Origin: Candidatus Omnitrophota bacterium
Lineage (GTDB): Bacteria; Omnitrophota; Omnitrophia; Omnitrophales; Aquincolibacteriaceae
DNA length: 22,927 nt
Assembly (NCBI GenBank): GCA_043803685.1
Contig: JAZDJU010000067.1
Location: 1 to 22,927 of the forward strand
Direction of reading: 5' to 3'
A program made the position numbers and the translations under genes. Positions within the stretch are counted from its first letter, which is position 1. Each line of letters begins with the position of its first letter. Below the pieces are notes generated by a model that made no database searches, had not been told where the DNA came from, and worked only from the letters and a program-made list of their open reading frames with translations. Of the stretch, positions 3,659 through 20,807 are shown in pieces.

Positions 3659-3845
3659 TGCCCATGTGGCATAACTTGTTTGATAGTATATGGTTGTGCG
3701 TCTTTTTATCATTCTCAAGACTATCCCCAATAGGGAATCTCTTTATTGCTTGAGCTTGTAATTTTTGAAATGTGTGTTAGATTTTTGCAAGATTTATTTA
3801 GATTGTAAAAAGTATTAATTAAATGATTTTTTAATGGAGGATTTG

Positions 3846-6800
3846 ATGAAGATTGGACTCAAAGTGGTTGCGGCGGTGACGCTCCTCTGCTTTGTGACGA
3901 CTCAATGTATTTCGGCGGCGCCCGGGGTGGGTATCGAAATAGCCAATCCACGCGAAGTGCCGTCTTACCTGAGCCTTGACGTTCCTGCGGAGCTCGGTAC
4001 GGTGGACTCTCTCTACGAAGCGCCTGCTAGCGCCAACCCACAATTCGTCCTTCATATCCAGAATGCCCATGCGAATTATGAAGCGCAAATGAAGATCAAA
4101 CAGCTTCTGGCTCATATGGACAAGCGCTACGGCTTCAAAACGATTTTCGTGGAAGGGGCTTCCGAAAAGCTGGATGCCGACTATATGCGCCTATTCCCGG
4201 ATGAAGCTCGGAACCTGAAACTTTGCGACGGACTCGCCAAACAGGGCGAATTGACCGGTGCCGAGCTTTATCTGATAGAGCAAACAGGGGCCCGTGGAAC
4301 GGGAAACGGGGAACGAAAAGCATCTAACGGTGACCGTTCATCGTTATCCGAGTTTCGCGGCGAAGCCGTTGAGGCCTTCGGGATCGAAGAAGCGGCGCTC
4401 TACCGGTCGAACTATAACGCCCTGAAGAAGGTGTTCGGCGCGGAAACGGATATCGATCATTTCTTCAAGGGGTTCGACGGTAAGATCGATCATGTCTCCT
4501 CGAAAGTATTTACGCCCGAAACCCGGGAACTGATTGCCGACTGGAAACGGTTCGAACAGGGACGCCGCGCGTTCATGCCCTTCGTTCAAGCGCTTGTTCA
4601 GAAATCCAAAAAAGTTCTGAAAGTTGATCTCGAGAGTCTTTTCGCTCAAGCGGGCTGGCCGCAGATCACGCGTCTTTTGGTCATCCAACGGATGGAAAAG
4701 GATCTGGACAGGACTCAGGCTCTTAAGGAAAAAACAACTCTTCTTGAGATGCTCCGACAGAAAGGCGCTTCGAAGGAACTGGTGGCAACGCTTGAGAATT
4801 TCAACGAGGGGAACATCACGGTCGGAAAGTCCACGAAGGAAGTTTTACCGCGTGTGGTCCTGGAGCGGCTCGCGTCCGAAATGGGGCCCAAGGGTTTCAA
4901 GTTCAGTGACTATCCTTCCTTCAGTCTCTTTGCGGGTTACGTTGCATTAAAGGCGGAGCTGGACCCCAAAGTTCTTTTCGCGGAGATCGAATCCCTTTTC
5001 ACGCAGATGCTCGATGCGCTGGGCAAGGAGCCTGAACAGAAATCACTACTCGCTCTTTACCGGGACGGCGAGCTCGTGCGTAAGCTTCTTCATCTGGAGC
5101 TGACTCGCGCCGAGTGGCGTCAGGTCGTTGCGGACAAGGATCGTCTTACTATTCCGTCGCTCGTTTCGCGATTGAAAGAATGTGTGCAAGTTGCGGATGA
5201 CGGAGGGCGGAAGGCGGAAGGCGTAAAAAATGGTTCTGCTCCATCCTCCATCCAACATCCGATATCCAAGTCTCCAGTCTCCGGTCTCCAGTCTGTGACT
5301 GACGTCATGCCCGAGAAATTTGCCAAGACGATGGAGGAACTCTTTTCGACCGGTCTCGAGTTCTATGATGTCGCGCGTCAGCGTGAAGCCGTCTTCTATA
5401 AAGAAATGCAAAATGCCATGAAAGAGCGCAAGATCAGTAAAGCCATTCTGATCACCGGCGGTTTCCACACCGACGGCATGAGCGACCTTTTCCGGGACCA
5501 TGACATGAGCTATGGCATCGTAACCCCGCGTCTCTCCGAAAAGTCCGACGAAAACCTCTATCGCAAGATCATGCTCCAGAAGAATACCGGAACTTTTGAG
5601 ATCTCCTATCTGGAATCGATCCTGAGAATGGAACCGCTGGCGGCACAGTTGGAGCAAGGCGGTGGAGATGTAACCAACATTGTGCAGGAATTTATGGCCG
5701 TGGCTAATATTTCGGATCCGGACCAGGCTGTGGCGATGTTGCGGGCCACTGCCGAGGCGACTGGAAAGACATTCTTGAATGGAAAAGACGGTAAAGGATT
5801 CGATATCGTTAAAGTGGGAAGTGGTTACAGGCTTGTTCTTCGTGAGCAAAATGCGGCGCCCGTCACTACTCAGATTGGTTCCGTTAAGGTTGAAACCGGC
5901 TCTATTGAATCACTTATGGCACCTGCCATTCCCGCGGATCAGCCTGAGGTTGAGGTCCGTTCCGCCACCCGCTCGGAATTACGCCTGGGATTTAAATCGG
6001 TGCTTTGGACGCTTACGATTTTGACGATAGGCGTCTCTCTTGTTGCGTTCTATCTCCAGTCGGAGAATCAAAGACTTCGAGTTCAACTTGGGGTGGAGAC
6101 ACAGAAGTTGGAACGCAACTTGGATTCCCATGTTGGGAAGCTTGCTCAAAAGCACGGCCTTTTCGACCAGCACGCCGACTTTTGGGTCGACGACAACGGT
6201 ATGCCAAAGTATGGGATCTATTTCTTTCCGAAGGGAGTTGTCTCGGATTGGCAAGCAGAGGTGAAGTCCGGGAGGACCACCGTCTATCAGCTTACGCAAC
6301 GTTTTAACGCCTATCAGGTGGTAAGAAATCTGGCGGATGAGCTCAAATGTCCCGTTCGGACGGAGGCTGAACTTCAGAAATTTGTCGAGATATTGTTAGC
6401 GAAGGGTGAGGCCGGACTTAAAGCTGCGATGAAGGAAGAAGCGAAAAAATGGTCTGACAAAATTCTGCCGGTGGCAGGTCCTTTCGTGAAATTCCGCTCG
6501 GAGGTGAGGGATAGGGATATTGCCACGATTCGTTCGGGCCGTATCTCGTGGGACCTTCGCGGTTTAAGTCTTTCCCTTGTTTTTTGGGGTGGTCTGGCAC
6601 TTTCCTTGTCATTCTCTGCAATTCTTATGTGGGCGATCTGGCAGGGGGATGCTGAGATCCAACCTGAACCAAGCGCTACACCGCCGGCCATCACATCATC
6701 CGTTCGCTCGGAGATGCGTCAGGATCTCATTGTCCCGCAGACTGGCACAGCTGTTTCCCCAAGAGTTGCGGCGATCGATGCGAAGAGGGCTCGTTGGAGG

Positions 6801-9800
6801 GCGGAGAGGGAATCTCAGAAGCTTGAGATTTTGGCGGAAGAGGCAAAGAGTGAATTCCCGTTGATCATCAAGTGGCGGATGGACGGAGGGAACGCGGCTT
6901 TAGGAGAAAAACCGCCGCGCGGAGTGAGAACGGCGAGGACGCCGCCGGGACAGATCGATAGCATCCAAGATGGGCGAGTTTTTTTTAGTAATGGCCTTTC
7001 TATTCCGGTCGCTTCTATTTTGGATTTGCGTACTGCGGATCCCGTTTTAAATTTTTCGGCCAACGTCATAGTCTGGGGTAGTGCGGCTTTCTTGGGTCTC
7101 ATAATTGTTTCGCTCATTTTTGCGGTGTTCAATGTGACGTCTTATCTCCAATCGCAGAACCGAGACATTGATGCCCGACTTGGAGTGCAAGTGGCAAGTT
7201 TAGAAAAGAATAGGCAAGAAAATGTGCATCTGAAGATCCTCAAGCTTGCTCTCGGTGACGATGACGGTGACAGTCTTTTCAATAAACATGCCGACTTTTG
7301 GATTGATGGCGATATTCCCAACTATGGGATCCATTTCTTTACAATGCGAGATATCTCGGATTGGCAAAAGCAGGTAGAGACCGGGAAGATCACTCTCGAT
7401 GAACTCAAGCAGCGTCTAGAGGCTTATGGGGTGGTGAGACAGCTGGCTGATGAGCTCATATGCCCCGTTCCGACACTGGAAAAGCTTGATGAGTTCGTCG
7501 GGATATATTTAAGCGAGGGTATGGACAAACTTAAAGCCGTGATGCAGGAAGAAGCGGTGCAACGATCTCGCGACGTTTTGCTGACGAATTCATTTCTTGA
7601 CAGCCTGACTCGCTCGGAGGTGAGGAGTGATACCGGGAAAGCTGCATTTACACTTCGTTGGCTTCAAGTTTTTTTATTGGGCGCATTTATTTTCACGCTC
7701 GGAGCTTATTTTGTTGAGCTTTGGCTGGAGCTTCGGCAGGCTGAAAATGTCCGAAAAACTGTGACATCTGAACATGTAACGGCTGCGACGGAATTCACCC
7801 AATTATTCCAGGATCTTTCCGGCCTCGATTCGAAAAATTCCGAGAGCACTCAAAAAGCTTTTGAAGGGTTGGTTAAAAAATACGGTTTGAAAGACATTTT
7901 GGTCGGTACCAGTTCGTCAAGCTCCCTTAAGCTGCTGCGCTTGATCGCTGGGGGATATCCCAAGCAGGATCCTGGCCAACCCTTCACAGGAATGATCTTT
8001 GGTAGCGAAGGCGGAAAGCGACTGGTCCTGGTGGGACCAGCACAGGCTGGTAAACAAGCGATTATTCGTTATAAACCGAAATGGGTTGGACAGAGCGGAA
8101 ATGCTTTATGGGGCGGAGTAGATTATGAGGCTGAGAAATGGAATCTTGAGTTATCAACTGGATTTTCTTCGAATGATTGTTTTTTAAAGTTCGGTTCGCC
8201 GGAAGAAGTTGCGGGTGTATTGCGTGAGGCAGAAGCCACTTTACCCCTATCATCGGTGGAGTATCTTATGAATGCCCCTCTGAGTGCGCCTGCCATCCAA
8301 TCCTCCCGCTCGGAGGTGAGGGTGGGTGAGGTGGTGAAGGAGTACGTCCTGCTCGCTCTTTCGGTCGTCTTTTTTGCTGGCGTGGGTTTTCTTGTGCTCT
8401 CGAACCCGCTCGTCGTGAATTTCTTGTATGCGGCGTTGAAGCTACCCATTAGTGCTCCCGCCTTTGGAATTGTGATGAAGGTTCTCGGCGTGCTATCAGG
8501 AGGTGCTCTGGGTCGGATGGTCGCTTTGCGGAAAATGTCACAGCATGTGAATGGGGAGGCTTTGAAAGCTGTCCGAAAGGTGGCGGGAGAATACGGCTTG
8601 CTTAGTGGGATGCAGTTCTCAGAATCTTTAGGAGAGAACGATGTTCAATTGTTTTTGGTCCAGGGGCTTTCCGAACAAGAGCTGAGGAAAAAATTTGAAG
8701 CTATCCAGACTATCCGGGATCTTGCTGAAGAAACTCAATATCCGGGGATTAAAGCGAACCAGAAAATGATGGTTGAGGCTTTGCGCGCTTGGGCGAGAAA
8801 GTTGCTGAGTGAGGGCGAGGACAAAGTCCCGGAGGTCAAGGAGAGGATAAGAAATTATTTTACATACCTTCGCGGGCAGCAGTTGCTTGCCGCGGCGCGT
8901 GTCAATGGTTCAGCGCCTGCCGAAGAGAAGTCCGCTCCTGCCTCTGATGCTTCGGAGGGCAAGCGCTCGGAGATGCGAGACCGTGGGCCAGCGAACTGGT
9001 TTAAGGGGGTGTCCTCGAAGGTATTGCTTGTCGCGATGTTTGTTTTGTTCACGTTCGGACAGTTGTTCCCGCCTGCGCTTGTGAGCCCTTCTTTTGCGGA
9101 GGGTCTGAAAGAGACGATTGAGCAAAGACTTGCCGACCCCGATTTGGCGCCTGGGCTTCGAGCTTTTTATGAAAAGCAATATGTGGAATTAGAGACAAAA
9201 AAGACGCTGCCGGAAACTTCGGATAAAGGTGGTGCGCCGTCTAAAAGTGCTGGAGATAACGGTCCGCGGGCGAAGGATCCCAAGGGCGTAAGCTTCTATC
9301 GTTCCCAACCTGCCGTGGTGACTACGATCGTTGATGCTGTCAGTCGCATTGGTGGAAAATATATGCGGCCCGGGGTGGGGATGCATTCTCCTACGTATGG
9401 CCCCATGGATCATGTCCAGGTGCATCCCGTGACAGGGAAGCCCGTGGGGAACCCGGCCAATTATGGCGCTCCATCCAAAGAAGGCGCTTTTTATCCGGCC
9501 ATGGTCCATTTCATGGAAGGAAATCCGGTTCTGAAAGGATCGGGCATTGAGCAGGTTTATTCCGTCAAGGATTTAGCCGCTGGCCTCCATGTGATGCAGA
9601 AGTTCCAGATGTCTGGGGAAGGCACGCAAACCTATGCTGGTTTATTTCCATGGCACTCCAAGAATGACAATGGAGAGCTTCTTATCGCTGAATATGGCGG
9701 GCGTTTTATGGTTCCAACGCTGGATAACGGACAGATGGCGTTTGGACTTGCCGCAGACGTCGGAGCGACCTTGAAGGCCACCGCGGGCACTCCTGAAAAG

Positions 9801-12800
9801 GATGTGCATGAGACCGCGCTGAAGATTCTTCGGGGCATGAATTTCGGGAAATATGTATTGTCCGATGGCTCTCTTGCGGCGGAATACAATTTCGGGACTC
9901 GATCCCTCGAAGGAAAAAGCGGCCACATGATGCTTTGGACCGAATGGGCCATTCCCGCCCTTTGGGGATATTTAACGGGGCAGGTCCCTGAAAAAGCATG
10001 GCTTTCATTTCCAAGCCCCACTTTTGTCTGGAATTCGCCCGCGGGGCCCCTCGACTTGCCCGAGGGATTTATTGATTCTGTGCATGAATGGTGGATCCTG
10101 CAATATCTCCACAAGACGATCATGAAATCCGAACTGGCGCCGCTTTTGCGGAATTTCTTTTACTATCACGCGACGCACGCACTGAAACACGATATGCCGG
10201 GTTTTGTCGCCACTGAATATTGGCAGGGAGGCTACACCCAAGGCGGTATCTGGTCTGAAAGGCCTGCGGGATCTCCGGCCGCCAGTGTAGGAACCAACCC
10301 CAAACACGAAGATATGGCAACACCCTATGCCACGGCCTTTCTGGCGCTTGTGGCTCCTGAGCCCGGTGCAGCATGGCTGAGCTATTTATTCAAACAAAAG
10401 GACATGGTGAGCGAATACGGTCCCCAGACGGCTTTTCGCCGTGCCGGCGGGCCCTCATGGATGATGTCCGCTGATAATACCTTTGGAACCCTTAACGCGG
10501 CAGGTGAACTCTATCTTCTTCTGAATAAACAGCCCGGCGGCGTCAATGATGCCATTCTCAAAACGCTGGAAAAATATTATGGGGTTTCGGAAGCGCAAGT
10601 GATCGAAGCGTTTAATCAACATGCGCGTGAGATCAAAAAAAGACTCGGGCGAGATTTCAAAGCGATCGAGGCTGCGCGTTTGCCTGGGCCGCCAACGCCC
10701 GGGAATTTCAGTTATACGCCGACAGAAAAAAAGATTTTTAAAGTTCAGGACTTGAGCCTCGCCGATCAGCTGATCGATGTCTGGCATACGAAGAATAATA
10801 AGACGGATTGGGACGCTCATACCCAGACGTTGACCGTCCGCTTCGATTTTTCCAAAAGTCTGGACCGTTATATGTATACGGGTCGGATGATCAAGGCGGT
10901 GCCTATTGACGGTTTGAACTATGTTTCCTTGTGGATCCCGGCTGATTACAAAGGCGGGACATGGCAGATCGAACTCAAAGACGCGGGCGTTGAACTTGCG
11001 CCGCGTTTGAACGTTTCGTCTGTTCGGGAGGGGCGACTGAGTCCCGATAAAAAGTGGAGAGAGGTTGTTTTTAAGACCGATTGGAAAGCTTCTTATCGCG
11101 GGATCGGAGCGGAACTGAATTATATCGCGTTTTCAGCCAATGATACTTCGTGGCATGGGACTCAGGGTGAGATCGTTTTTAAAGGGATGCAATTTCACAA
11201 GAAAGACCCCGGCACCGGCGAATCGATCTCTGCCCCTGCGACAACCGGAGCCCGCCTTGGAACAGCGCCCGAGGTAACCGGAAAAACTTCTGTCAAACAA
11301 AGCGTTCCGCTAGCTGAGATATCTTTAAATGTCCAAACGTTCCAGAAGGCGCAGAAAGCCGGGATCAACGATGTCGCGAAATTTCTGAGGGCGTACTTTT
11401 TACAGAAATACAAATATGAGCTTTCGGACACGGGGAATGTGAATGGCTGGGTGATGGGAATCGCGGGGTGGTACACGAATAGCGCTGATCATGGCGGCGA
11501 TCTGAGTAACCGGTCTTTCTCGGAATTCGAAGGCGAGATGGCGCGGAAGATCGAAGAGGCGAGAGCGAAAAACTATGGCCAGGCGAGGTCTGAAGTTCGT
11601 TCGGCGAGTTTTTATGCCGGGGTGATTGGCTTGGTCATGATGATAACGACAACGGTTGCTCAGGGTGCTGATTCGAGGCAGTTTCTTGAGGAGCGGCTTA
11701 AGGACCCGACTTTGCCTGCCGCGACGCGCCAGGTTCTTGAACAGGAATACACGCGGCTTTTAGAACAGGCGCCTGCGAAGTCCAATGCTCCTGCAACGGA
11801 GATATCTATCAATGCTCAAACGTTCCAGAAGGCGCAGAAAGCCGGGATCAACGATGTCGCGATATTTCTGAGGGCGTACTTTTTACAGAAATACAAATAT
11901 GAGCTTTCGGACACGGGGAATGTGAATGGCTGGGTGATGGGAATCGCGGGGTGGTACACGAATAGCGCTGATCATGGCGGCGATCTGAGTAACCGGTCTT
12001 TTTCGGAATTCGAAGGCGAGATGGCAAGAAAGATCGAAGAAACGAGATCAAAAAACTATGGCCAGTCGAAGTCCGGTTCTGCGCCTGCAGCGTCCATTGC
12101 ACCCAAGCCGTCTGCGACGCCTTCTCAAGCCCGTGATCTGAACGGGGCGAAGGCCGCGATCACAACGGATCTCCAGTCAAAGGGGTTTGCGATCCAAGAC
12201 CAAAGCTGGCTTTCCGGTATCGCTCCGTTTTACACGGGCAATCGACCGCTTGAGGATCTTCAAGGTGAATTAACACCTCAAAAGCTGGATCGGTTGGTTC
12301 GGGATGGAATGATCAGGCCTTTGTCTTCCCAAACTCCGTCTGCCGTACAGCAGCCGGCGGCTGTTGCGCCGACCTCGTTTTTTTCAGCGAGTTTGGCTTC
12401 TCGCAATATTATTGCCTCCAAATTGTTCGGCTTACATCCCGAATCGCAGGGGGATAGGGGGACGGTGGAGGTCACTTCAGAAGGCATTGCGGCCACATTG
12501 TCCTACGGTGGTTGGGCCGGCCTGAGATTTCCGTTGCAACGGATCGGGGACCTGATCCCGGCGGGCACTCAATATTTGATGGTGGAAATGCATACGGCGC
12601 CGCATGGATTTTTCAGTCATGGGAAATACGGTTATCCGGAAGGGGCTTATTTTGAATTCAAACGCGACAGCGCCTATGTGGTAGGGGGCGGAAAATTAGA
12701 AACAGCGGCTGGATATCATGCGGAATATGCCGACGGTGCCCGGGTGACGCGCTACTTTATTCCAGTCAAGACATTCGATCCGCAAAGCAGTATGAACTTT

Positions 12801-15800
12801 TTCGGGATCTCGACGCACGGGTTTCATGGCAATACGGGCATGCGTGTGGAAGTTCCGGCCATCGTTCCTCTCACGGGCGATGAGTACAAGAAAATTATGG
12901 CAGAAGAGATCGAAACCAGTTTTATCGGATCGGGGACAAGCAAAGTCACCATAGCGAAAGGTTCTACCGGTCGCTCGGAGGTGAGGGCGGGCTCTCTGCG
13001 TTGGCCTGTGGATGGGGATCAGAATTCAGCATGGGCTCATCTATCAGAGGAAGAATATCTTTCTTGGGGATCTAAGCTCTTCAGCGGATTGCGTAGGCTG
13101 CAATTGAACCCGTTGGAAATTGGATGGCTGAAAACGACCGGCTTTCCATCAGCGGTTAAGCGAATTGCGATTGGGCAATTGCATAGTTACTCGGTTCCGT
13201 ACGGCATGAAGCTAAGTGTTGACTATCGCAATGCGGCAACGGGGGCTTGGGGAACATTTGTCTTTGAACAGCCGGGCGAAGACCAGTGGGTTGCTTTGCC
13301 GACAAAAGCTGAAACTGTGGTTCAAGTGCCGGATAAGAAAAGCATTCCGGCGCTTGTCCGGCAAGTGCTTCTGTGGCGAAAAACAATGATCGAGCAGTTT
13401 GCTGCGGCGCGCGGGGACGCGGCACAGGGGATCGTCTATTCGGACGGAAGACGCTTTGCCCAGATCAGGGATCTTTCTTTGGCGCAAGAGCTCCTGGCGC
13501 AAGGCATCCTGGCTTTTTATGACAACAGACTCGTACTCGTGGGTGTCACTCCTGACGATTTTGCAGATCGTGGTGGTGTTCAGGTTATCCGCTCGGAGAT
13601 GCGTAAGCCATTGAAGCAGGCGCGCCTAGGTCTATGGCAAAAGGTCCCTCGTACAAGAAATGGGAAAGTCGTTCAAGAGTTCTGGTGGCTCGACGCTGCA
13701 AGAAAGTGGCTTCCTTTGACTTTGGGCGTACTGGCGTTTGTGTCCGTGGGGTTTGTTACTCTCAAGTATTATGTTGACGTACAAGAGCAGCAGCATTATG
13801 CGGTTACCGTGCCAGTGAATCAGCAGATAGCCGAGGCGCTCGAGATCCCCTATGCCGATTCTCCTCTGTTCGACAAGTTGCATTCTCTTTTTCCTGAAGC
13901 CCTCCCGGAACTAAAGGCGAAAGGTGTTATCTCAAAGGATGAAGAGGAATCTTATAATGTTGTGGAGTTTGCGAAATATGTGAAAGATTTTAGTGAGGAA
14001 AATCCTGATAAGCTTTCAGACTCACTTGCTCTGAAGATCCTGGACCTTTCCGCATGGATCGCGCAGTTGCCGAGGTCCGAAATCCGCTCCACAAACCGCT
14101 CGGAGATGAGGGGGCAGGGGGGCTTGGAGAGGCTTCGATCAATTCAGCGTTCGGTCGCGAATTGGTATAAGCGGTGGACGAAGTCTGTGGTGAGTCTTGA
14201 TCGTACGTGGCGTAATCCTGAGGTGGTGTCCTATGAGCCGGCTTGGTATGCTCCGGCGCGGGAGTTTGGAAAGAGCATGAGACGTCTTGCGCTGGGAGTC
14301 GCATTGATCGGTCCTCTCGCGTTTTTTGTGATGTTCCCTGCTGTCCAGTACGGTTTGGATGCTGTGGGGACATACATAGCAAATGTCGAAGAGGAATTGC
14401 GGCAGGCAGAGGAAATCAATCAAATGCTGGAAAAGGAGCTCAATATTCCACCGAGTAATCCGGAACTATCCAGCTCTTTTCTATCTCTCTATATGCAATG
14501 GCTTGTAGAAGTAGAAGAAAATTACAATTTCCATGAGAATGAAACGCTTTACGGCTTCTTAGTTTTTCTAAGCGGTTTAGGGAACGAGAAGATCTTTAAA
14601 CAGACGAAGGATGCTGGGTATTCGGATGGATTTTTAGGTAGGGCGCGCTTGTTGTGGCTGCAGTTGGCTGATTCGAAGGGGAAGGCGATTTTGGAAGGGC
14701 TTGCGAGGAAAGCCGAGCTCGAAAGCTATGTCGGCCAGAAGGTTAATGTTTGGTATCTGTCTGATGGAAGGGAAGCGACCTGGAGGTTGGGAACCAGACC
14801 GGCCGATGCGGATCTTGTGGTCGGAACGCTTATTCAGATCAGTACAAATGAGATCGTGGTGCTGAAAGCTGATGAGACCCTTCAGGTGATACCGAATAGA
14901 TCGCTTTTCGATGTGAAGCCGGTGTCGCCGGATGGATTGCTTAAGATGGTAGCTTCCCGCTCGGAGATGCGGTTGACGTCAGGGGCCATCTCAAGGATGC
15001 AAGAGCGTGTGGAAAAGGGGCTGGATCGGTGGTTGCAGGCGCAATCGCATCTGGAGAACCCTGCTCCGGAAGTCCGCCGGCAGCTTCAGCAGCAAGCTTT
15101 TGCGCATTTCGGATTTTCCTGGCAAGGTATTTTGAACAGGGGTTTGAATGATCCTGAATCGCAGGAGTTGAAACCTGAAATGCTTCGCTCTGGGGATGTT
15201 CTTTTTGCGCGTTCTCGTGAGTCGAAACAGAATGCGGTCTTGGTCGTACAAAATATTGAAAATGATGGCAAAGGCCAGTTTGTGAAATGGACTTTGGGGG
15301 GTAAGAAGGACGGCGCTTATTTGCATGATCAGGAGTTTTTTGAAGGGGCTCTTTCGGATTTTCTCGTTAAGGATGTATACCGGTTAAATAGGGTCGTGAG
15401 GGATATTATTAGCGGAATTGTCGGTCCCGGTAGTCCGCATATTCTTCTTCAGAATGTTCTCGTCGAAACTATTCTTGGCACAGGAAATCTTGAGGCCATG
15501 ATATCGCTCGTAGAAAAGCGAGGAGGGCAGGAGCGAGTTACAGAGCTTGCTAAGCTTTCGGCGTCCGCGGAAAAGACGAATGAAGGAGGAGAAGTTTTAA
15601 CTTTGGACTCTCTCTCAAAAAGCCTTGATAAACAAGTCGAAGAGTTGTTTGGGTTGCAGGCTATTAAGCAGAGGAATTCTCTCATAGAGAGACAGGACAA
15701 AGATAGAGAGTATAAGGATAAAGTATTGAGGAGCGAAGGTGCAGAAAGGGACAGATCCTATGATGTGCTTCAAAACACCTCTGACGACATCGGCGCCTCC

Positions 15801-18800
15801 TTGGTGAAGCTTCAGGAGTTTATCGGGAATTTGTCTGCTGAGAATTTGCGAGTTGAATTTGAAGTCTTAAAGGGGGATCGCAGTGTAGAAATAGTCCGGG
15901 ATCTTCAGGAGATCTTCTCGATTCTGAGTACAATGCGGGGCATTGTTGCGGGCGTGCCGAAAGAAATAAAGAAAATGGATCAGCTGAACCAGAAGAGGGG
16001 AACTTCCGCTTTGAAGCCGGTCGTGAGTAATCTGGAGGGACTCCAGGCGGAACTCAGCGCTTTTGGTAAAGTCTTGTCCAGGGCTCTTGCGGGTCTTCAG
16101 GCTTTTGATCCGGACGTTGAACAGCTGACGCCAACGACTCTGGAGCAAATCGAGGCGGCGCTAAAGGCTGTTGGGGAAATTGATGCGGTGCTGAAAGCCT
16201 TGGGACCGAATCTTCTGGAGTGGCGCGTCAAGGGTGTAGCATTTAATGGAACGATGAGCGTCTTAGAGTATGAGCTGCGGAAAGTTCTGCTCGCTTCTTC
16301 CCGCTCTGAGATGCGGGCGGAAGTGGTGGAAGGGCAGGATGTGAAGGCGACGATCGAGCGGCGTATCCAAAACGCGAGCCAGAATCTGCTGTTTGGAGAT
16401 TTGATTCCTGCCAATGCTCCACTGATTTCGGCTCTTAAGGTTGCAAAATTTAACGATTGGAATTCTGTTTCAACTCATGTGAATAATGCGATTGTGAAGT
16501 TGGAACCCTTCCGAAATTCGACAAACATGACGATTCGGAATTCGGCTCGGGCAGCGTCGAGAGATTTGCAAGAGGCTCTACCCTTAATCGATCAGATGCG
16601 TTCTGAGGCGAGGGGGAACGCTGTGATGACTGATGATGAAGTGATGAATGCTTTGCAGGGGCTCACGGACCGGGTAGCAGCGCTTACGACGCCCGAATTT
16701 ACCGCAAAATATTTTAACGATCCCAAGGGGGATGCAAATGTCAATCGTTTTACCCAGAATCTCAAGGCTGCGGAATTGTCTTTGAGGTTTGCGTTGCTGC
16801 GGCTTGACAAGGGTGAGCTAGTGGATGAAGTTGTTCGGGCTCACGGGCCCGAGACTCCCTTGTATCTGGCGATGAAAAATCTCACAGCGGCGTCTGTGGG
16901 AGTGTCTCGTTCCTTTGGGAGAGTAGCTTATCGTTTTTCGGAGGCAAGAAAAAATGGCAGAGTAGTGGGTAGCTTGGGTTACACCGGTTCGCTGGTCGAA
17001 GGTCTGACAAGAAAAACGGGTCTCAGGCCTGACGCCCAACTCATGGAAGAATATTTTGTAACGACGGAAGGTTTGAAGGACGAGATTCTTGCGGTAAAGA
17101 ACAGTGTCCGTTCGGAGGTAAGGGCGAATCTGGTGGGTGATCCTATGCACATCGCCAGTTTCTACTATGCCATCGATCCGGCAAAAGATCTTGCTGAGCA
17201 GAAGTCTGAAACAGAGGCCTTTCGCCAAGCGCTTCTCCAAGGTTTGGAGGCGACTCAGAATGATGCTCGTCAGTCTGGAAGGTCGGCAGACTCTTTTGAG
17301 GTTGAGCTGTTTACTTCGGTCATCACAGAAAATGTCCCGCAAACAGACGAACAATTTTTGTCATATCTGCGTTCCGCGCTGGACTTCATTTACCAATACA
17401 ACGGTACCTATGAGCTTATTTTGCTAAACAAGTCACTGAGGGATATTTTTGAAAGTGCAACTGAATATGAAGACGCAGCGTTGGCGAACGAGCATTTGAC
17501 GAACATCGAGAACATCTGGGCCTTGCAGCACAGTGTGTATGTCGCGTCAGCCGTCAGGTTTGTTGCGGATTATGAAAGAAAGCGCGGTTCTACTTCTCGC
17601 TCCGAAGTGAGGACGCCTGAGGATGATATTCGTGGTTACATCGCGAGCGCGTTAGAAGATTTGGAAACTGTTGTTTATCTGAAATATCAGCAGAAAGTAA
17701 GTGAATTGAAATGGGGGCCCTTAGCGTCTGCGCAGAAAGCTGCGAAAGCTGGGGATTGGAATAGTGTGACAAAATATGCGAAAGAGGCGTCAGACATCTT
17801 GTTGGGGGTGGCGAATGATATGAGTGCCAACGTCAATGCCCGGGGGGCGGCTGTTCTTGTGAGGCGTGATCTGGTCCAAGCTCAAAGAGTGATCGCGAGG
17901 ATGAGCCATCCAGCAGAAGGAAGGGCGGGAGGGGCTGAGCGGGCGACCCTTCTTGATGATTCTGTCGCTTCGGAGATCCTTATGCGGATCAATAATGCCG
18001 CGCTAAATTTGAAGGACGCTTCACTTGAGCCGTATAAGCAGGTGCAACTCGACCCTGCGGTTCGGGCCGCCAAGGAGAAAAAATGGGGCAGGTTGGTGGT
18101 TTTTGCCGAATGGGCCACCGGTCAATTGCAATCTTTAGCGCCAGGTAATGAGCAGGTAAAATTCGCGCAGGAGGATCTTCAGGACGTAATCTCCTTGATC
18201 GATCCCGACCGCTCCGGGTCGAGTCAGCAGCTTAGTGTCAAAAGCGCGATCGCTGCGGTGGAAGCTGTTCAGAGAAGTCTCCCCAGTAAATTGGAGCCGC
18301 TTGCGGGAGTTGGCGAAGACGCTGGTGCGAAAAACGGCGATGTTTCTCTCAAGGCACTGGATCTGACCGAGATAAAGGGTGCGGCTGTTGGAGGGATCGG
18401 TACTGACATCGATGATGTTGAAGCCAGCATCAGGTTTTTGGCGGAAAAACTCGATCGTCTGCGTGAAGTGAAAGGCTATAGACCTAGTAATGTCGAAAGC
18501 GCTGTAAAAGCTCTTCGCGCTATTGCCAACGATCTACGGGCCACACCTCGTTCTGAGGTGAGGGGAGGGCTTGCAAATGATATTCATGAATTGATGAACA
18601 TTTGGAATGATTTCGGTGGCTATGATTTCTTCCCGGCAGGTTTGCCGTTGCCTGAAGATTTTCTGAAGGCATATCGAAATGTTCTCGGGCAGCTCCGGAG
18701 TCTGGATGGCGTTTTGCGCGATGAGGCGGAACACGCAGGATTTTTAAATCTTTTAGATGAAACTATAGAAAGTCTTCAGATGCAAACTAAGGGGGTAAGA

Positions 18801-20066
18801 GATTCTAGTTCCCGCCTGGCCATGAACGCTCCAATCAGTGGGTTTCAAGAGATCCGAAAAAAAACAGGAACTGGTTACTCTTTTGCAATGCTATTGAATG
18901 ATTTTCAGAAGAATTTAAGCGTGTTGGCGATGAATGGCCAAGGTCAGCCGAATGTCGAACGAGAACTTCGGGAGATCGAGGCTCGTGCGTTTCTACGGAT
19001 CAAACCTTTGATGCAGCTTTATCTGGATGAGGCGGACAAGGTGCTTGTTCGGATACAGTCGAATGAATCACTGAAAGCGGTACTGGGTAGTTACAGTGAA
19101 ACGATCCATGCGAAACTCCAAACGATTCGCGGTCGTTCCGAGACGCGTGTGGCGGGTAAGGAATTGGAATCGGCGGATGTGGTCATGAGCCATCAGAAGC
19201 TGGCGAAGGAGGTTTGGGGCTCATTGTCACTGATCGCGCAGGGGAAACTTCGTTCTATGGGATTTGAAATTGGTAATGGCTCGTTGGCTGACGTGCTAGG
19301 ACAGATCATTGTTCCGGCGGAAATGGGAAGTATCACGGCGGAGCAAGTAAAAGCGATGCTGATGTCGCTGATCGCGCTCAGGGCGGGACAACTGGATCAA
19401 GAAAAATTTTTAGGTCTAGCAAAAACGATCTTGAAAAATCCGATGATGTCCGTGTCCAACGAAGCAGGAGTGGCGATCATTATTACGCCAAGATTGACTG
19501 AGACGGCCAAAGAAGACATCCGGCAGCAGCTGATCATGAATACAGGCCAGGTTGTGCAGGTCGTGGTGACCGAAGCGATGGATAGTGAAACGGTCAGGGC
19601 GTGGAGGGACGAGATCGAGTGGGATTATGATATTAATGGTCAGTATATCTCTGGGCGGTTTTCGATCTGGAACGCTCCGAAGAACGTTTCTCGGGACGTA
19701 CAGATCGGCATTTCAAGTATTGTCCACAGTCGTAAGGAATTTTCGGGCGGGAAGCACCTATCGATCCTTATCGAGAATTTACCTGGATTTCAGCTGTCAA
19801 ATACCCTTGGAACTGTCCTTGAAAGTCCGAGCGCCAAAGCGGAGAATGCCGGTGTTCGCAGCTTGCTGGCGATGCGGGTTTCCCAGACGAGTGTTGATCA
19901 GACCAATCGGTTGCTTTCCGCGCAGGTAGGCGGGGTCGTGCTGAAGCAGGCACCCGGGGCGGGGCAGATGAACGCGCCTTATCAGATCGACGAAAATCTT
20001 TTGACGGGCCTGGCGAAGATTTGGGCCGAGCTCATGGGGATCCGAGCAACATCGATCGCGGCATAA
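3846..20066 (+). CDS. Giant secreted/membrane modular protein (about 5,406 aa) punctuated by 18 RSExR motifs
   Basis: Uninterrupted 16.2-kb ORF. GGAGG (3836-3840) lies 5 nt before ATG 3846, and there is a Sec-type signal peptide MKIGLKVVAAVTLLCFVTTQCISA. It has multiple hydrophobic helices and a terminator directly downstream. Confidence 0.93.
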   Translation: MKIGLKVVAAVTLLCFVTTQCISAAPGVGIEIANPREVPSYLSLDVPAELGTVDSLYEAPASANPQFVLHIQNAHANYEAQMKIKQLLAHMDKRYGFKTIFVEGASEKLDADYMRLFPDEARNLKLCDGLAKQGELTGAELYLIEQTGARGTGNGERKASNGDRSSLSEFRGEAVEAFGIEEAALYRSNYNALKKVFGAETDIDHFFKGFDGKIDHVSSKVFTPETRELIADWKRFEQGRRAFMPFVQALVQKSKKVLKVDLESLFAQAGWPQITRLLVIQRMEKDLDRTQALKEKTTLLEMLRQKGASKELVATLENFNEGNITVGKSTKEVLPRVVLERLASEMGPKGFKFSDYPSFSLFAGYVALKAELDPKVLFAEIESLFTQMLDALGKEPEQKSLLALYRDGELVRKLLHLELTRAEWRQVVADKDRLTIPSLVSRLKECVQVADDGGRKAEGVKNGSAPSSIQHPISKSPVSGLQSVTDVMPEKFAKTMEELFSTGLEFYDVARQREAVFYKEMQNAMKERKISKAILITGGFHTDGMSDLFRDHDMSYGIVTPRLSEKSDENLYRKIMLQKNTGTFEISYLESILRMEPLAAQLEQGGGDVTNIVQEFMAVANISDPDQAVAMLRATAEATGKTFLNGKDGKGFDIVKVGSGYRLVLREQNAAPVTTQIGSVKVETGSIESLMAPAIPADQPEVEVRSATRSELRLGFKSVLWTLTILTIGVSLVAFYLQSENQRLRVQLGVETQKLERNLDSHVGKLAQKHGLFDQHADFWVDDNGMPKYGIYFFPKGVVSDWQAEVKSGRTTVYQLTQRFNAYQVVRNLADELKCPVRTEAELQKFVEILLAKGEAGLKAAMKEEAKKWSDKILPVAGPFVKFRSEVRDRDIATIRSGRISWDLRGLSLSLVFWGGLALSLSFSAILMWAIWQGDAEIQPEPSATPPAITSSVRSEMRQDLIVPQTGTAVSPRVAAIDAKRARWRAERESQKLEILAEEAKSEFPLIIKWRMDGGNAALGEKPPRGVRTARTPPGQIDSIQDGRVFFSNGLSIPVASILDLRTADPVLNFSANVIVWGSAAFLGLIIVSLIFAVFNVTSYLQSQNRDIDARLGVQVASLEKNRQENVHLKILKLALGDDDGDSLFNKHADFWIDGDIPNYGIHFFTMRDISDWQKQVETGKITLDELKQRLEAYGVVRQLADELICPVPTLEKLDEFVGIYLSEGMDKLKAVMQEEAVQRSRDVLLTNSFLDSLTRSEVRSDTGKAAFTLRWLQVFLLGAFIFTLGAYFVELWLELRQAENVRKTVTSEHVTAATEFTQLFQDLSGLDSKNSESTQKAFEGLVKKYGLKDILVGTSSSSSLKLLRLIAGGYPKQDPGQPFTGMIFGSEGGKRLVLVGPAQAGKQAIIRYKPKWVGQSGNALWGGVDYEAEKWNLELSTGFSSNDCFLKFGSPEEVAGVLREAEATLPLSSVEYLMNAPLSAPAIQSSRSEVRVGEVVKEYVLLALSVVFFAGVGFLVLSNPLVVNFLYAALKLPISAPAFGIVMKVLGVLSGGALGRMVALRKMSQHVNGEALKAVRKVAGEYGLLSGMQFSESLGENDVQLFLVQGLSEQELRKKFEAIQTIRDLAEETQYPGIKANQKMMVEALRAWARKLLSEGEDKVPEVKERIRNYFTYLRGQQLLAAARVNGSAPAEEKSAPASDASEGKRSEMRDRGPANWFKGVSSKVLLVAMFVLFTFGQLFPPALVSPSFAEGLKETIEQRLADPDLAPGLRAFYEKQYVELETKKTLPETSDKGGAPSKSAGDNGPRAKDPKGVSFYRSQPAVVTTIVDAVSRIGGKYMRPGVGMHSPTYGPMDHVQVHPVTGKPVGNPANYGAPSKEGAFYPAMVHFMEGNPVLKGSGIEQVYSVKDLAAGLHVMQKFQMSGEGTQTYAGLFPWHSKNDNGELLIAEYGGRFMVPTLDNGQMAFGLAADVGATLKATAGTPEKDVHETALKILRGMNFGKYVLSDGSLAAEYNFGTRSLEGKSGHMMLWTEWAIPALWGYLTGQVPEKAWLSFPSPTFVWNSPAGPLDLPEGFIDSVHEWWILQYLHKTIMKSELAPLLRNFFYYHATHALKHDMPGFVATEYWQGGYTQGGIWSERPAGSPAASVGTNPKHEDMATPYATAFLALVAPEPGAAWLSYLFKQKDMVSEYGPQTAFRRAGGPSWMMSADNTFGTLNAAGELYLLLNKQPGGVNDAILKTLEKYYGVSEAQVIEAFNQHAREIKKRLGRDFKAIEAARLPGPPTPGNFSYTPTEKKIFKVQDLSLADQLIDVWHTKNNKTDWDAHTQTLTVRFDFSKSLDRYMYTGRMIKAVPIDGLNYVSLWIPADYKGGTWQIELKDAGVELAPRLNVSSVREGRLSPDKKWREVVFKTDWKASYRGIGAELNYIAFSANDTSWHGTQGEIVFKGMQFHKKDPGTGESISAPATTGARLGTAPEVTGKTSVKQSVPLAEISLNVQTFQKAQKAGINDVAKFLRAYFLQKYKYELSDTGNVNGWVMGIAGWYTNSADHGGDLSNRSFSEFEGEMARKIEEARAKNYGQARSEVRSASFYAGVIGLVMMITTTVAQGADSRQFLEERLKDPTLPAATRQVLEQEYTRLLEQAPAKSNAPATEISINAQTFQKAQKAGINDVAIFLRAYFLQKYKYELSDTGNVNGWVMGIAGWYTNSADHGGDLSNRSFSEFEGEMARKIEETRSKNYGQSKSGSAPAASIAPKPSATPSQARDLNGAKAAITTDLQSKGFAIQDQSWLSGIAPFYTGNRPLEDLQGELTPQKLDRLVRDGMIRPLSSQTPSAVQQPAAVAPTSFFSASLASRNIIASKLFGLHPESQGDRGTVEVTSEGIAATLSYGGWAGLRFPLQRIGDLIPAGTQYLMVEMHTAPHGFFSHGKYGYPEGAYFEFKRDSAYVVGGGKLETAAGYHAEYADGARVTRYFIPVKTFDPQSSMNFFGISTHGFHGNTGMRVEVPAIVPLTGDEYKKIMAEEIETSFIGSGTSKVTIAKGSTGRSEVRAGSLRWPVDGDQNSAWAHLSEEEYLSWGSKLFSGLRRLQLNPLEIGWLKTTGFPSAVKRIAIGQLHSYSVPYGMKLSVDYRNAATGAWGTFVFEQPGEDQWVALPTKAETVVQVPDKKSIPALVRQVLLWRKTMIEQFAAARGDAAQGIVYSDGRRFAQIRDLSLAQELLAQGILAFYDNRLVLVGVTPDDFADRGGVQVIRSEMRKPLKQARLGLWQKVPRTRNGKVVQEFWWLDAARKWLPLTLGVLAFVSVGFVTLKYYVDVQEQQHYAVTVPVNQQIAEALEIPYADSPLFDKLHSLFPEALPELKAKGVISKDEEESYNVVEFAKYVKDFSEENPDKLSDSLALKILDLSAWIAQLPRSEIRSTNRSEMRGQGGLERLRSIQRSVANWYKRWTKSVVSLDRTWRNPEVVSYEPAWYAPAREFGKSMRRLALGVALIGPLAFFVMFPAVQYGLDAVGTYIANVEEELRQAEEINQMLEKELNIPPSNPELSSSFLSLYMQWLVEVEENYNFHENETLYGFLVFLSGLGNEKIFKQTKDAGYSDGFLGRARLLWLQLADSKGKAILEGLARKAELESYVGQKVNVWYLSDGREATWRLGTRPADADLVVGTLIQISTNEIVVLKADETLQVIPNRSLFDVKPVSPDGLLKMVASRSEMRLTSGAISRMQERVEKGLDRWLQAQSHLENPAPEVRRQLQQQAFAHFGFSWQGILNRGLNDPESQELKPEMLRSGDVLFARSRESKQNAVLVVQNIENDGKGQFVKWTLGGKKDGAYLHDQEFFEGALSDFLVKDVYRLNRVVRDIISGIVGPGSPHILLQNVLVETILGTGNLEAMISLVEKRGGQERVTELAKLSASAEKTNEGGEVLTLDSLSKSLDKQVEELFGLQAIKQRNSLIERQDKDREYKDKVLRSEGAERDRSYDVLQNTSDDIGASLVKLQEFIGNLSAENLRVEFEVLKGDRSVEIVRDLQEIFSILSTMRGIVAGVPKEIKKMDQLNQKRGTSALKPVVSNLEGLQAELSAFGKVLSRALAGLQAFDPDVEQLTPTTLEQIEAALKAVGEIDAVLKALGPNLLEWRVKGVAFNGTMSVLEYELRKVLLASSRSEMRAEVVEGQDVKATIERRIQNASQNLLFGDLIPANAPLISALKVAKFNDWNSVSTHVNNAIVKLEPFRNSTNMTIRNSARAASRDLQEALPLIDQMRSEARGNAVMTDDEVMNALQGLTDRVAALTTPEFTAKYFNDPKGDANVNRFTQNLKAAELSLRFALLRLDKGELVDEVVRAHGPETPLYLAMKNLTAASVGVSRSFGRVAYRFSEARKNGRVVGSLGYTGSLVEGLTRKTGLRPDAQLMEEYFVTTEGLKDEILAVKNSVRSEVRANLVGDPMHIASFYYAIDPAKDLAEQKSETEAFRQALLQGLEATQNDARQSGRSADSFEVELFTSVITENVPQTDEQFLSYLRSALDFIYQYNGTYELILLNKSLRDIFESATEYEDAALANEHLTNIENIWALQHSVYVASAVRFVADYERKRGSTSRSEVRTPEDDIRGYIASALEDLETVVYLKYQQKVSELKWGPLASAQKAAKAGDWNSVTKYAKEASDILLGVANDMSANVNARGAAVLVRRDLVQAQRVIARMSHPAEGRAGGAERATLLDDSVASEILMRINNAALNLKDASLEPYKQVQLDPAVRAAKEKKWGRLVVFAEWATGQLQSLAPGNEQVKFAQEDLQDVISLIDPDRSGSSQQLSVKSAIAAVEAVQRSLPSKLEPLAGVGEDAGAKNGDVSLKALDLTEIKGAAVGGIGTDIDDVEASIRFLAEKLDRLREVKGYRPSNVESAVKALRAIANDLRATPRSEVRGGLANDIHELMNIWNDFGGYDFFPAGLPLPEDFLKAYRNVLGQLRSLDGVLRDEAEHAGFLNLLDETIESLQMQTKGVRDSSSRLAMNAPISGFQEIRKKTGTGYSFAMLLNDFQKNLSVLAMNGQGQPNVERELREIEARAFLRIKPLMQLYLDEADKVLVRIQSNESLKAVLGSYSETIHAKLQTIRGRSETRVAGKELESADVVMSHQKLAKEVWGSLSLIAQGKLRSMGFEIGNGSLADVLGQIIVPAEMGSITAEQVKAMLMSLIALRAGQLDQEKFLGLAKTILKNPMMSVSNEAGVAIIITPRLTETAKEDIRQQLIMNTGQVVQVVVTEAMDSETVRAWRDEIEWDYDINGQYISGRFSIWNAPKNVSRDVQIGISSIVHSRKEFSGGKHLSILIENLPGFQLSNTLGTVLESPSAKAENAGVRSLLAMRVSQTSVDQTNRLLSAQVGGVVLKQAPGAGQMNAPYQIDENLLTGLAKIWAELMGIRATSIAA
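4288..4357. repeat. In-frame heptamer-repeat palindromic insertion in the giant gene
   Basis: GGAACG GGAAACG GGGAACG ... CGTTCAT CGTTATC CGAGTTT. It encodes the low-complexity loop GARGTGNGERKASNGDRSS. Confidence 0.6.
5193..5294. repeat. In-frame heptamer-repeat insertion in the giant gene
   Basis: GCGGATG ACGGAGG GCGGAAG GCGGAAG ... TCCATCC TCCATCC AACATCC GATATCC AAGTCTC CAGTCTC CGGTCTC. A purine-rich arm is followed by a pyrimidine-rich arm. Confidence 0.7.
9300..10560 (+). other. Glucoamylase-like (alpha/alpha)6 glycoside hydrolase domain, GH144/GH189-like (boundaries approximate)
   Basis: Ordered motifs GLFPWH (9639), VPTLDNGQM (9711), LWTEW (W at 9936), DSVHEW (10074), TPYATAFLAL (10320), YGPQTAF (10416), MSADN (10464). 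They parallel the GHFYNWY / VSxVDSGNL / LASE / GSMFE / APYAxxLAL / YGFYEA order recalled for the Cgs/NdvB glycoamylase domain. Confidence 0.6.
10740..11200 (+). other. CBM11/CIA30-like beta-sandwich, putative carbohydrate-binding domain (boundaries approximate)
   Basis: Pattern IDGLNYVSLWI...WQIELKD...KWREVVF...LNYIAFS...GEIVFKGMQF immediately follows the GH-like domain. Confidence 0.5.
11316..12065 (+). repeat. Near-identical 267-bp direct repeat (11316-11582 and 11799-12065; 89 aa)
   Basis: Offset 483 bp. In manual alignment the 209-bp core (11334-11542 vs 11817-12025) differs at only 2 positions (AAA>ATA, TTC>TTT). Confidence 0.95.
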
Positions 20067-20801: not shown

Positions 20802-20807
20802 ACGCGC

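Follow-up and report, generated by a model that had tools for sequence, protein, structure and literature searches.

The 22,927-nucleotide (nt) window analysed here (contig JAZDJU010000067.1 of the Candidatus Omnitrophota assembly GCA_043803685.1) contains one giant open reading frame (ORF), the product of which is punctuated by the five-residue motif R-S-E-x-R. With a probability that we put at about 0.55, the gene encodes a cellular polyprotein in which R-S-E-[V/A/L/M/S/I/T]-R is a putative site of a sequence-specific endopeptidase. Such an enzyme would cut the chain at the motifs into a conserved head, about 16 cargo proteins and a tail; the scissile bond would most likely lie directly after the second arginine, and cutting would most likely take place in the cytoplasm of the producing cell, during translation or soon after it. 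Released units bearing a hydrophobic, lipoprotein or twin-arginine signal would then be inserted or exported, and the others would remain cytoplasmic. Cleavage is the best-supported reading and a well-supported one, though deduced only indirectly, from the position of the motifs, the signals that follow them, the covariation of motif variants and loci in which the units are unfused.

Motifs between whole protein units

RSE.R occurs 18 times in the frame of the giant ORF, x being V in eight copies, M in six and L, I, A and T in one each. Composition predicts 0.09 copies, 2,000 shuffled sequences had 0.093 on average and 2 at most, and the other five frames of the whole window hold two copies in total. 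The motif-to-motif lengths are 175, 70, 302, 232, 219, 874, 462, 206, 161, 8, 287, 448, 99, 170, 163, 317 and 195 amino acids (aa), the last segment having 310 aa. No RSE.R is present in aa 1-712 or inside the segment 1711-2584, and in 12 of 18 cases a small or polar residue (T, S, A, G, P or N) comes directly before the motif. The first-pass annotation of this DNA had given the same copies, x residues and spacings, which were reproduced exactly; its statements that chance predicts well under one copy, that the motif is absent from the first ~710 aa and from a GH-like domain, and that it usually follows a small-residue linker agree with these figures. Residues are numbered throughout from the first ATG, at 3834; GGAGGA sits 4 nt upstream of the ATG at 3846, the database copy of the protein has 5,406 aa, and ATG 3846 (5,406 aa) is probably the true start. 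The main parts of the gene are as follows.

3834..20066, + strand: giant ORF, 5,410 aa counted from the first ATG
3834..5969, + strand: conserved head, aa 1-712, the family-defining part
5970..5984, + strand: motif 1, RSELR, aa 713, head-cargo junction, with a hydrophobic helix starting 10 aa downstream
6495..6509, + strand: motif 2, RSEVR, aa 888
6705..6719, + strand: motif 3, RSEMR, aa 958
7611..7625, + strand: motif 4, RSEVR, aa 1260
8307..8321, + strand: motif 5, RSEVR, aa 1492
8964..8978, + strand: motif 6, RSEMR, aa 1711, followed by a signal-peptide-like stretch
11586..11600, + strand: motif 7, RSEVR, aa 2585, codons AGG TCT GAA GTT CGT, followed by a signal-peptide-like stretch
12972..12986, + strand: motif 8, RSEVR, aa 3047
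13590..13604, + strand: motif 9, RSEMR, aa 3253
14073..14087, + strand: motif 10, RSEIR, aa 3414, first of a tandem pair 8 aa apart
14097..14111, + strand: motif 11, RSEMR, aa 3422, second of the tandem pair
14958..14972, + strand: motif 12, RSEMR, aa 3709
16302..16316, + strand: motif 13, RSEMR, aa 4157
16599..16613, + strand: motif 14, RSEAR, aa 4256
17109..17123, + strand: motif 15, RSEVR, aa 4426
17598..17612, + strand: motif 16, RSEVR, aa 4589
18549..18563, + strand: motif 17, RSEVR, aa 4906
19134..19148, + strand: motif 18, RSETR, aa 5101, cargo-tail junction
19134..20063, + strand: conserved tail, aa 5101-5410

The motif is a trait of a protein family. Relatives of the head were located by a scan of one genome per species, which returned at least 593 pattern matches; 380 of those listed encode a relative, and the 79 related loci used below come from the best 80 of these 380. 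The loci are labelled Candidatus Omnitrophota (53), Planctomycetota (1) and Elusimicrobiota (1), and 24 bear no label. A set of 273 family proteins holds 1,287 copies of RSE.R in 1,004,732 residues; among the 225 family proteins of at least 1,300 aa, at least three RSE.R are found in 137, at least three R[SAP][ED].R in 173, and at least three copies of the replacement motif [AGS]xSLG in 17 further proteins. The number of motifs scales with length: whichever length class is taken, the part beyond the head has 2.2-3.4 of them per 1,000 aa, and the first motif always comes after the head. Relatives poor in RSE.R use RAExR, RSDxR, RPExR, HAELR, [AGS]xSLG or RDTAM, and the lineage variants RAExR, RSDxR, RPExR and [AGS]xSLG sit at the same places as RSExR. 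Around the 79 loci, other giant ORFs are the only flanking ORFs enriched in the motif, and ordinary ones carry scattered single copies. The first-pass annotation had predicted this pattern, as it expected the motif to be enriched in giant proteins that share the N-terminal domain and nowhere else.

Comparison with Pfam domains of relatives clearly indicates that the motifs lie between whole units. In 12 relatives, none of 25 Pfam stretches holds the strict motif (9.35 expected); in 11 more, none of 24 holds the loose motif (10.5 expected); and in four proteins with RAEVR or [AGS]xSLG, none of ten holds the motif, i.e., 0 of 59 stretches for all sets together. The bracketing can be tight: a receiver domain enclosed by two RSETR starts 4 aa after one and ends 7 aa before the next, and an HPr unit starts 2 aa after RSEVR, so that its His is the 15th residue past the motif, presumably the same position as in free HPr. 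UDP-glucose dehydrogenase, glutamate dehydrogenase (GDH), a GT5+GT1 glycogen synthase and phosphoglucomutase are each kept within one segment, and no motif interrupts the three-domain UDP-glucose dehydrogenase, GDH or glycogen synthase. Segment length between motifs has a median of 294 aa (interquartile range 150-527; 937 segments), and the pre-tail motif occupies the same alignment column in six of six syntenic relatives, with differing flanks. The location at apparent domain boundaries, noted earlier from the window alone, agrees with these results.

Loci with unfused heads tell a similar story. In three distant loci (L066, L070 and L077) the head is a separate gene of 529-552 aa ending in a stop codon, followed by a ribosome-binding site and an ATG; the next genes start with their own signal peptide or anchor, and no motif was found in any of them. 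They encode PGK-like proteins of ~800 aa in two loci, and an aldolase+PFK+GAPDH ORF and a PPDK ORF in the third. The stop-start junctions of these loci correspond to the motifs of the fused forms. The signal- or anchor-like N-termini are odd for glycolysis-type enzymes, which are located as follows.

L066 11410-13803, L070 6822-9233, L077 11447-21235: glycolysis-type enzymes after head-only genes

At the peptide level, 806 sites show little information outside the five motif residues. In a set of 1,134 sites, subsite preferences extend from -3 to +1 past the motif; V accounts for 25% of x, A for 19%, L for 17.5% and M for 13%, and x is nearly never D, E, K, R, G, P or aromatic. Position -1 is small (A, S or P); A, S, G, T and E are over-represented directly after R5, and Pro is found there in 1.4% of cases against a background of 4.6%. 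In the related loci, 218 motifs are written by 193 different 15-mers, and the E3 and R5 codons match background use. R1 is CGY in 175 of these 218 motifs (93 expected), and S2 is TCY in 154 (79 expected) and AGY in 14 (74 expected), for which selection on the peptide alone is insufficient. The window follows its own preferences, since 13 distinct 15-mers encode its 18 motifs (one used four times, two used twice each), with CGC for R1 in 12 (background 16%), TCG for S2 in 11 (background 21%, AGY never being used), GAG for E3 in 14 (background 45%) and AGG for R5 in nine (background 17%). The earlier remark that the codons vary synonymously holds for the number of 15-mers, but the variation is not free; selection on the peptide, which had been concluded from it, is confirmed by the 193 15-mers and leaves the codon bias at positions 1 and 2 unaccounted for. 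Selection acts mainly on the peptide, because the 15-mers are diverse, the E3 and R5 codons are at background and a Shine-Dalgarno-like form is not general.

Two explanations at the nucleic acid level were weighed against these data. The motif may be a footprint of the in-frame joining of genes or cassettes at the DNA level, functionless in the protein, and the codon bias at R1 and S2, with CGCTCGGAG in 10 of 18 window motifs and CGCTCCGAR preferred in other genomes, speaks for this, as does the turnover of cargo at a fixed locus. The diversity of 15-mers and the background use of E3 and R5 codons, the restriction of x and the bias of the flanks at the amino-acid level, and the presence of unrelated replacement motifs at the same places make such a scar very improbable; no repeat or palindrome surrounds the sites, the only long direct repeats being two module duplications. 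Translational punctuation, i.e., separate synthesis of units through internal starts at Shine-Dalgarno-like motif codons or through skipping of a peptide bond, was suggested by many window motifs that read ...GGAGGTGAGG or ...GGAGATG..., with GTG or ATG at x. We regard it as hardly credible: the commonest form in the 79 related loci, CGC TCC GAR, has no Shine-Dalgarno core, ~29% of sites have A or S at x, neither encoded by a start codon, a Shine-Dalgarno sequence abutting the start codon leaves no spacer, and upstream of the motif there are no conserved residues of the kind that a skipping peptide would need. The Shine-Dalgarno/internal start candidate was rejected, the GGAGG core being specific to the window and x being often A or S. 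An artefact of codon reassignment, with a motif codon acting as a stop, was rejected because several codons are used at every motif position.

Export signals downstream of the motifs

Signals of membrane insertion and export are found within the giant chains, just downstream of motifs and almost never upstream of them. Over 1,063 motifs, 100 hydrophobic helices start 5-45 aa after the motif, where 36 are expected, and six lie from -40 to +5 of it, where 41 are expected. Strict twin-arginine motifs number 15 in 180 family proteins; nine of them lie 5-35 aa downstream of a punctuation motif (1.09 expected), and none lies in the mirror window upstream. Lipobox-like sites were found 10-40 aa downstream of motifs in five cases (0.86 expected) and never upstream, and three of the five are convincing lipoprotein signals, one of these also with a twin-arginine motif. 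Substrates of the twin-arginine translocation (Tat) pathway fold in the cytoplasm and are exported folded, being recognised via an N-terminal signal. An internal Tat signal would therefore be sensible only after release of its unit, which would place the putative cleavage in the producer's cytoplasm rather than after delivery.

In the window protein, eight of 12 hydrophobic segments lie 5-64 aa after a motif, and two resemble cleavable signal peptides. The segments are listed below.

6000..6056, + strand: hydrophobic helix, aa 723-741, 10 aa after motif 1
6570..6626, + strand: hydrophobic helix, aa 913-931, 25 aa after motif 2
7065..7121, + strand: hydrophobic helix, aa 1078-1096, 120 aa after motif 3, not motif-proximal
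7644..7700, + strand: hydrophobic helix, aa 1271-1289, 11 aa after motif 4
8322..8498, + strand: two or three hydrophobic helices, aa 1497-1555, beginning 5 aa past motif 5
9000..9056, + strand: signal-peptide-like helix, aa 1723-1741, 12 aa after motif 6, with four K/R in the N-flank and none in the C-flank
11604..11660, + strand: signal-peptide-like helix, aa 2591-2609, 6 aa after motif 7
13707..13763, + strand: hydrophobic helix, aa 3292-3310, 39 aa after motif 9, with a very basic stretch before it
14289..14345, + strand: hydrophobic helix, aa 3486-3504, 64 aa after motif 11

Eight of the nine single helices, neighbouring pairs included, have the more basic flank on the N-terminal side. 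These orientations conflict with one uncut chain, which would need alternating orientations. In three relatives, no helix separates a signal-bearing head from the PFK, HPr or receiver domains that come after it.

The possibility of an uncut scaffold must be weighed at this point. Here the giant protein would be a membrane-tethered multi-enzyme chain, and the motif a linker site for a docking partner, for a chaperone or insertase, or for modification of Ser or Arg. The available part of the published topology work treats the giants as single membrane-anchored chains (bioRxiv 10.64898/2026.06.07.730766). The motif does lie in short linkers, the ~8 residues that flank it being enriched in disorder-promoting residues; some enzyme junctions have no motif, and genome-linked motif variants, described below, fit any trans-acting partner. 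We nevertheless find an intact chain rather unlikely, since the Tat and lipoprotein signals directly after motifs would have no role in it, neighbouring helices that are all predicted N-in cannot share one chain, cytoplasm-type enzymes of the relatives follow a signal-bearing head without a helix between, and the depletion of Pro after R5 with a small residue there is typical of cleavage sites.

A number of observations weigh against the proposed cleavage. The transmembrane scan was a simple hydropathy window and not a trained predictor; a hydrophobic helix follows only ~10% of motifs, and the positive-inside argument carries a bias, two Arg being contributed by the motif itself. The Tat (nine) and lipobox (five) cases are few and could be relics of recent gene fusions. 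Fifty-one of the 937 segments are shorter than 30 aa, relative P0076 carries HPr and a receiver domain in one segment with no motif at their junction, and the three-enzyme ORF of locus L077 lacks any motif. No recognisable peptidase domain was found in the window protein or its neighbours with Pfam, and the codon bias at R1 and S2 belongs here as well. The earlier proposal of a protease site that releases about 17 cargo proteins is sustained with respect to boundaries, signals, subsites and genome-linked variants, but the evidence is indirect and no protease was identified; the secretion or chaperone docking tag that it named as an alternative is a less probable candidate.

Motif variants, the head and the putative protease

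Motif variants are closer among paralogues of one genome than across genomes (cosine 0.478 versus 0.24), and in a permutation test 2 of 5,000 permutations reached the observed value. As an example, two heads of one genome, 61% and 27% identical to that of the window, both favour RSESR. The [AGS]xSLG class clusters on the head tree, with 5 changes against 14-17 in 200 shuffles, which is no sign of co-evolution because related sequences share labels anyway. The likeness within genomes and this clustering both fit a recogniser encoded once per genome, and variant likeness within genomes would be expected for any trans-acting partner. With regard to the protease, a separate genome-encoded enzyme is more likely than the head, since the head has its own export signal and the Tat evidence would put cleavage in the cytoplasm. 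A conserved neighbouring protease was not found: clustering of the flanking ORFs of the 79 loci gave synteny groups only and no universal neighbour. Comparison of RSExR-using with [AGS]xSLG-using genomes gives a handle for finding the enzyme.

The head begins with a hydrophobic stretch after two lysines, identified by hydropathy scan, and the same scan detected an N-terminal hydrophobic segment in eight of 12 relatives.

3846..3917, + strand: N-terminal signal peptide or membrane anchor of the head

Among proteins of 2,975-9,468 aa, 198 match the head at E <= 0.001, and 1.84 billion representatives, searched exhaustively, include 6,803 matches at E <= 0.001, of which 720 reach E <= 1e-30. All 150 of the matches listed have the head at the N-terminus, and the family is almost wholly Omnitrophota; an Atlas search with the head found only Omnitrophota hypothetical-protein clusters. 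The longest of 274 family proteins has 7,944 aa, and a search with P0079 over 4,307-13,705 aa found no head-bearing protein above this length. Two to four head paralogues are present in several genomes, and giant genes are arranged in tandem in some; in loci L030 (1-9774), L011 (3-9848) and L036 (2-9493), another giant ORF rich in motifs ends immediately upstream of the one with the head.

Searches of the head against Pfam, NCBIfam and PDB sequences found no match, a PDB profile search gave only two irrelevant matches with E above 0.01, and tblastn against plasmid and phage collections was negative. Invariant residues are H79, E107, Y190, F510, Y511, R517, T541, G542, G543, F544, H545, G548 and P565, with H79, E107 and H545 invariant in 49 of 49 aligned heads. 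The spacing of H79 and E107 is 28 residues, as in the His-Glu pair quoted for the TIKI-superfamily enzymes Bcr135 and RRSP in the available part of PMC6254334, and the head has a later invariant His after a G-x-x-H-like turn. The catalytic set of TIKI/TraB/erythromycin-esterase proteins is, in that source, 2His/2Glu; in the head, H79, E107 and H545 were found and a second Glu was not identified. The head differs from these enzymes in having no sequence or profile similarity to them (Pfam, NCBIfam, PDB profile, YbaP hhalign). As a TraB-family relative it was rejected, hhalign against the single template E. coli YbaP giving a probability of 0.5%. Separately, at locus L069 (1655-2965), the part behind the head of a family member of ~1,000 aa has an intein/Hint splicing-domain match (E 3e-11), a self-processing module.

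These features of the head bear on a MARTX-like alternative, in which the chain would be exported via the head signal, head and tail would form a delivery device, the cargo would be freed outside or in prey, and the head would be the processing hydrolase. Head and tail are conserved around cargo in which no similarity can be detected, not even where syntenic orthologues with 72-88% identical flanking genes are compared; the head, with its invariant His, Glu and His and an H79-E107 spacing as in two TIKI-superfamily enzymes, always precedes the first motif, the SLG motif class clusters on the head tree, and Omnitrophota are described as predators or epibionts in the available parts of Seymour et al. 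and West-Roberts et al. Such delivery seems decidedly unlikely, as no RTX repeats, cysteine protease domain or other peptidase family were found, the profile comparison of the head with a TraB-family protein gave a probability of 0.5%, and the internal Tat signals imply folding and release in the cytoplasm. Moreover, very different head paralogues of one genome share a motif variant, the tree clustering reflects the shared labels of related sequences and shows no co-evolution, and the cargo of relatives consists mostly of ordinary metabolic and signalling enzymes.

In the available part of PMC6315884, MARTX toxins are described as very large bacterial proteins with conserved ends and variable modules between, in which an internal cysteine protease autoprocesses the regions between effectors. 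The likeness to the giant protein is one of layout only. The giant protein has neither glycine-rich RTX repeats nor a cysteine protease domain (Pfam, NCBIfam), its motif is a strict 5-mer, Tat, lipoprotein and membrane proteins are found among the cargo of its family next to ordinary enzymes, and release would probably take place in the producer's own cytoplasm. The MARTX analogy of the first-pass annotation can accordingly be kept for the conserved head and tail around variable cargo and not for the RTX repeats or the protease domain.

Cargo, locus and comparison with other systems

The cargo of the window protein has few recognisable relatives. With the protein searched as two halves, Pfam found no family at E <= 0.01, the 16 segments gave only chance-level matches at E <= 1, and NCBIfam gave no match for the head or the segments. 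PF26157 is listed in the database for the window's own protein and one relative (P0002, P0011), and the Pfam search made here did not match it. Of 250 relatives, only a few match the cargo (aa 713-5100), and these weakly, within aa 713-957 and 1867-2202. The longest segment resembles glycoamylase-like (PF10091) clusters by language model with a score of 0.93, a lead only and the sole support for the label 'GH-like'; for the same segment there was no Pfam, NCBIfam or PDB homologue, and a word-index search found none of 480-1,530 aa. Two features of the cargo are given below.

8964..11585, + strand: longest segment, the 'GH-like' unit, aa 1711-2584
11316-11590 and 11799-12073, + strand: duplicated module, 275 nt each, 95% identical

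The copies of the duplicated 97-aa module have 89% protein identity; the first ends in motif 7 (RSEVR), and the second has unrelated residues there. With 12 synonymous and 14 nonsynonymous differences, the ratio of nonsynonymous to synonymous substitution rates (dN/dS) is 0.28, from which it follows that the cargo is still under constraint. An older duplication, 6197-6468 and 7310-7581, has 70% DNA identity, and the segments 713-887 and 958-1259 have 45% protein identity; modules of this type are the only cargo shared within the 79 loci, with L002 only.

The cargo of relatives includes ordinary enzymes and regulators, e.g., HPr, response regulators, PFK, UDP-glucose dehydrogenase and glycogen synthase, and is thus not only effector-like. 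In the P0079 clade, HPr, a PEP-utilising enzyme domain and response-regulator receivers recur as cargo, so that cargo is not equally variable in all clades. The tail is always C-terminal in ~10 close relatives (25-35% identity), and Pfam and PDB sequence and profile searches assign it to no known family. Its end (20040-20063) is conserved in six syntenic relatives and closes with two small residues, mostly Ala-Ala; this may be a C-terminal recognition signal.

Viral polyproteins, e.g., those of potyviruses or flaviviruses, are cut at short linear sites. The giant gene resembles them as one ORF with many whole proteins parted by a short conserved motif that has preferences at neighbouring positions; the motif varies by lineage, the products include membrane and soluble proteins, and internal signals follow the putative cleavage sites. 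In contrast to viral polyproteins, the giant gene is chromosomal, belongs to a cellular organism and lies between housekeeping genes, its chain has no recognisable protease, several such genes occur per genome, and cleavage is inferred. Precursors of ribosomally synthesised and post-translationally modified peptides (RiPPs) with multiple cores and prohormones are cut at repeated recognition sequences. Short recognition sequences likewise repeat in the giants and flank each product of one precursor, but the products of RiPP precursors and prohormones are peptides, whereas the units of the giants are 300-aa enzymes and membrane proteins. The giant system would work like a viral polyprotein, is laid out like MARTX and has the defining features of neither.

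Giant proteins of Omnitrophota have been noted before. The available part of a 2026 preprint (bioRxiv 10.64898/2026.06.07.730766) describes 'multi-enzyme metabolic cluster' giants with odd topology, and the present family resembles published giants in phylum, in the many unrelated enzyme families per chain, in the many transmembrane helices and signal peptides, in puzzling topology and in pilZ neighbours. Of the traits of class 1 of that preprint, the multi-enzyme giants, the window protein has the Omnitrophota origin and the transmembrane and signal content; enzyme Pfams are found in relatives and not in the window protein itself. The difference lies in the punctuation motif, which the parts of these publications that were available do not mention, the words 'motif', 'cleav' and 'polyprotein' being absent from the text of the 2026 preprint. 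Archaeovorin/Dockerin-type giants, as described in the available part of West-Roberts et al., have SecA DEAD-like domains, C39 or S8 peptidases, dockerin/discoidin repeats and more than 30,000 aa; the window protein lacks those Pfam families, and its family reaches 7,944 aa. No published description of the motif was found in the literature, preprint supplements not covered, in agreement with the first-pass annotation, which knew of none.

The available part of West-Roberts et al. (bioRxiv 10.1101/2023.11.21.568195) asks whether the products of Omnitrophota giant genes are cleaved, calls the cleavage points unknown and states that their absence blocks structure prediction per unit; giant ORFs are called poorly understood by Seymour et al., and the predicted topologies of multi-enzyme giants are called implausible or contradictory in both preprints (bioRxiv 10.64898/2026.06.07.730766 and bioRxiv 10.1101/2023.11.21.568195), all as far as the available parts of these sources go. 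If the proposed cleavage is real, the motif would serve as a cleavage map for these proteins and the contradictory topologies would be resolved; proof of cleavage would establish polyproteins in a cell at a scale for which viruses have so far been the main precedent. A countable motif between whole units makes the question of a single or a cut chain directly testable, predicts exact neo-N-termini, and gives boundaries for the folding and annotation of thousands of unannotated segments. More tentatively, with chances that we rate somewhat below even, the phylum as a whole may practise a virus-like mode of gene expression, in which its own enzymes, regulators and membrane and Tat/Sec/lipoprotein exports are written as single ORFs replacing operons and cut by a dedicated cytoplasmic protease whose site drifts between genomes (RSExR, RAExR, RPExR or, in other clades, [AGS]xSLG).

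Within the window, the giant ORF is flanked by ordinary chromosomal genes: the end of pheT, a RarA/MgsA ATPase and a STAS+PilZ protein upstream, and DUF1844, an LPG-synthase-like membrane protein and aroQ downstream. The order PheT, RarA, STAS/PilZ, giant gene, DUF1844, LPG-synthase-like, AroQ recurs in ~12 genomes, and the STAS+PilZ gene stays next to the giant gene in ~12 syntenic loci; the available part of West-Roberts et al. (bioRxiv 10.1101/2023.11.21.568195) also reports pilZ genes adjoining Omnitrophota giant genes. Among the syntenic loci, flanking proteins are 72-88% identical and STAS/PilZ 61-91% (39% in one locus), heads 50-65% and tails 25-33%, and the length of the giant gene is 2,003-5,410 aa.

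2822-3658, + strand: STAS+PilZ domain gene, directly upstream of the giant gene
20088..20111, + strand: intrinsic-terminator-like hairpin with a 10-bp stem, 8 G-C pairs, then a T run

The hairpin, a strong one, begins 22 nt past the stop codon of the giant gene. Rfam and tRNA searches gave no match anywhere in the window, and PADLOC returned nothing usable for the head, tail and cargo segments. A gap of 860 nt (20067-20926) separates the giant gene from the DUF1844 gene, and a sigma-70-like promoter, perfect at 12/12, lies in it at 20774-20801. The G+C content of the giant gene is 0.47-0.54, against 0.55-0.56 in the neighbours (3834-20066 versus 1-2481); compared with the neighbours, its GC skew is strongly positive and its codon use differs, with 13% versus 4% for AGA and 55% versus 37% for GAA.

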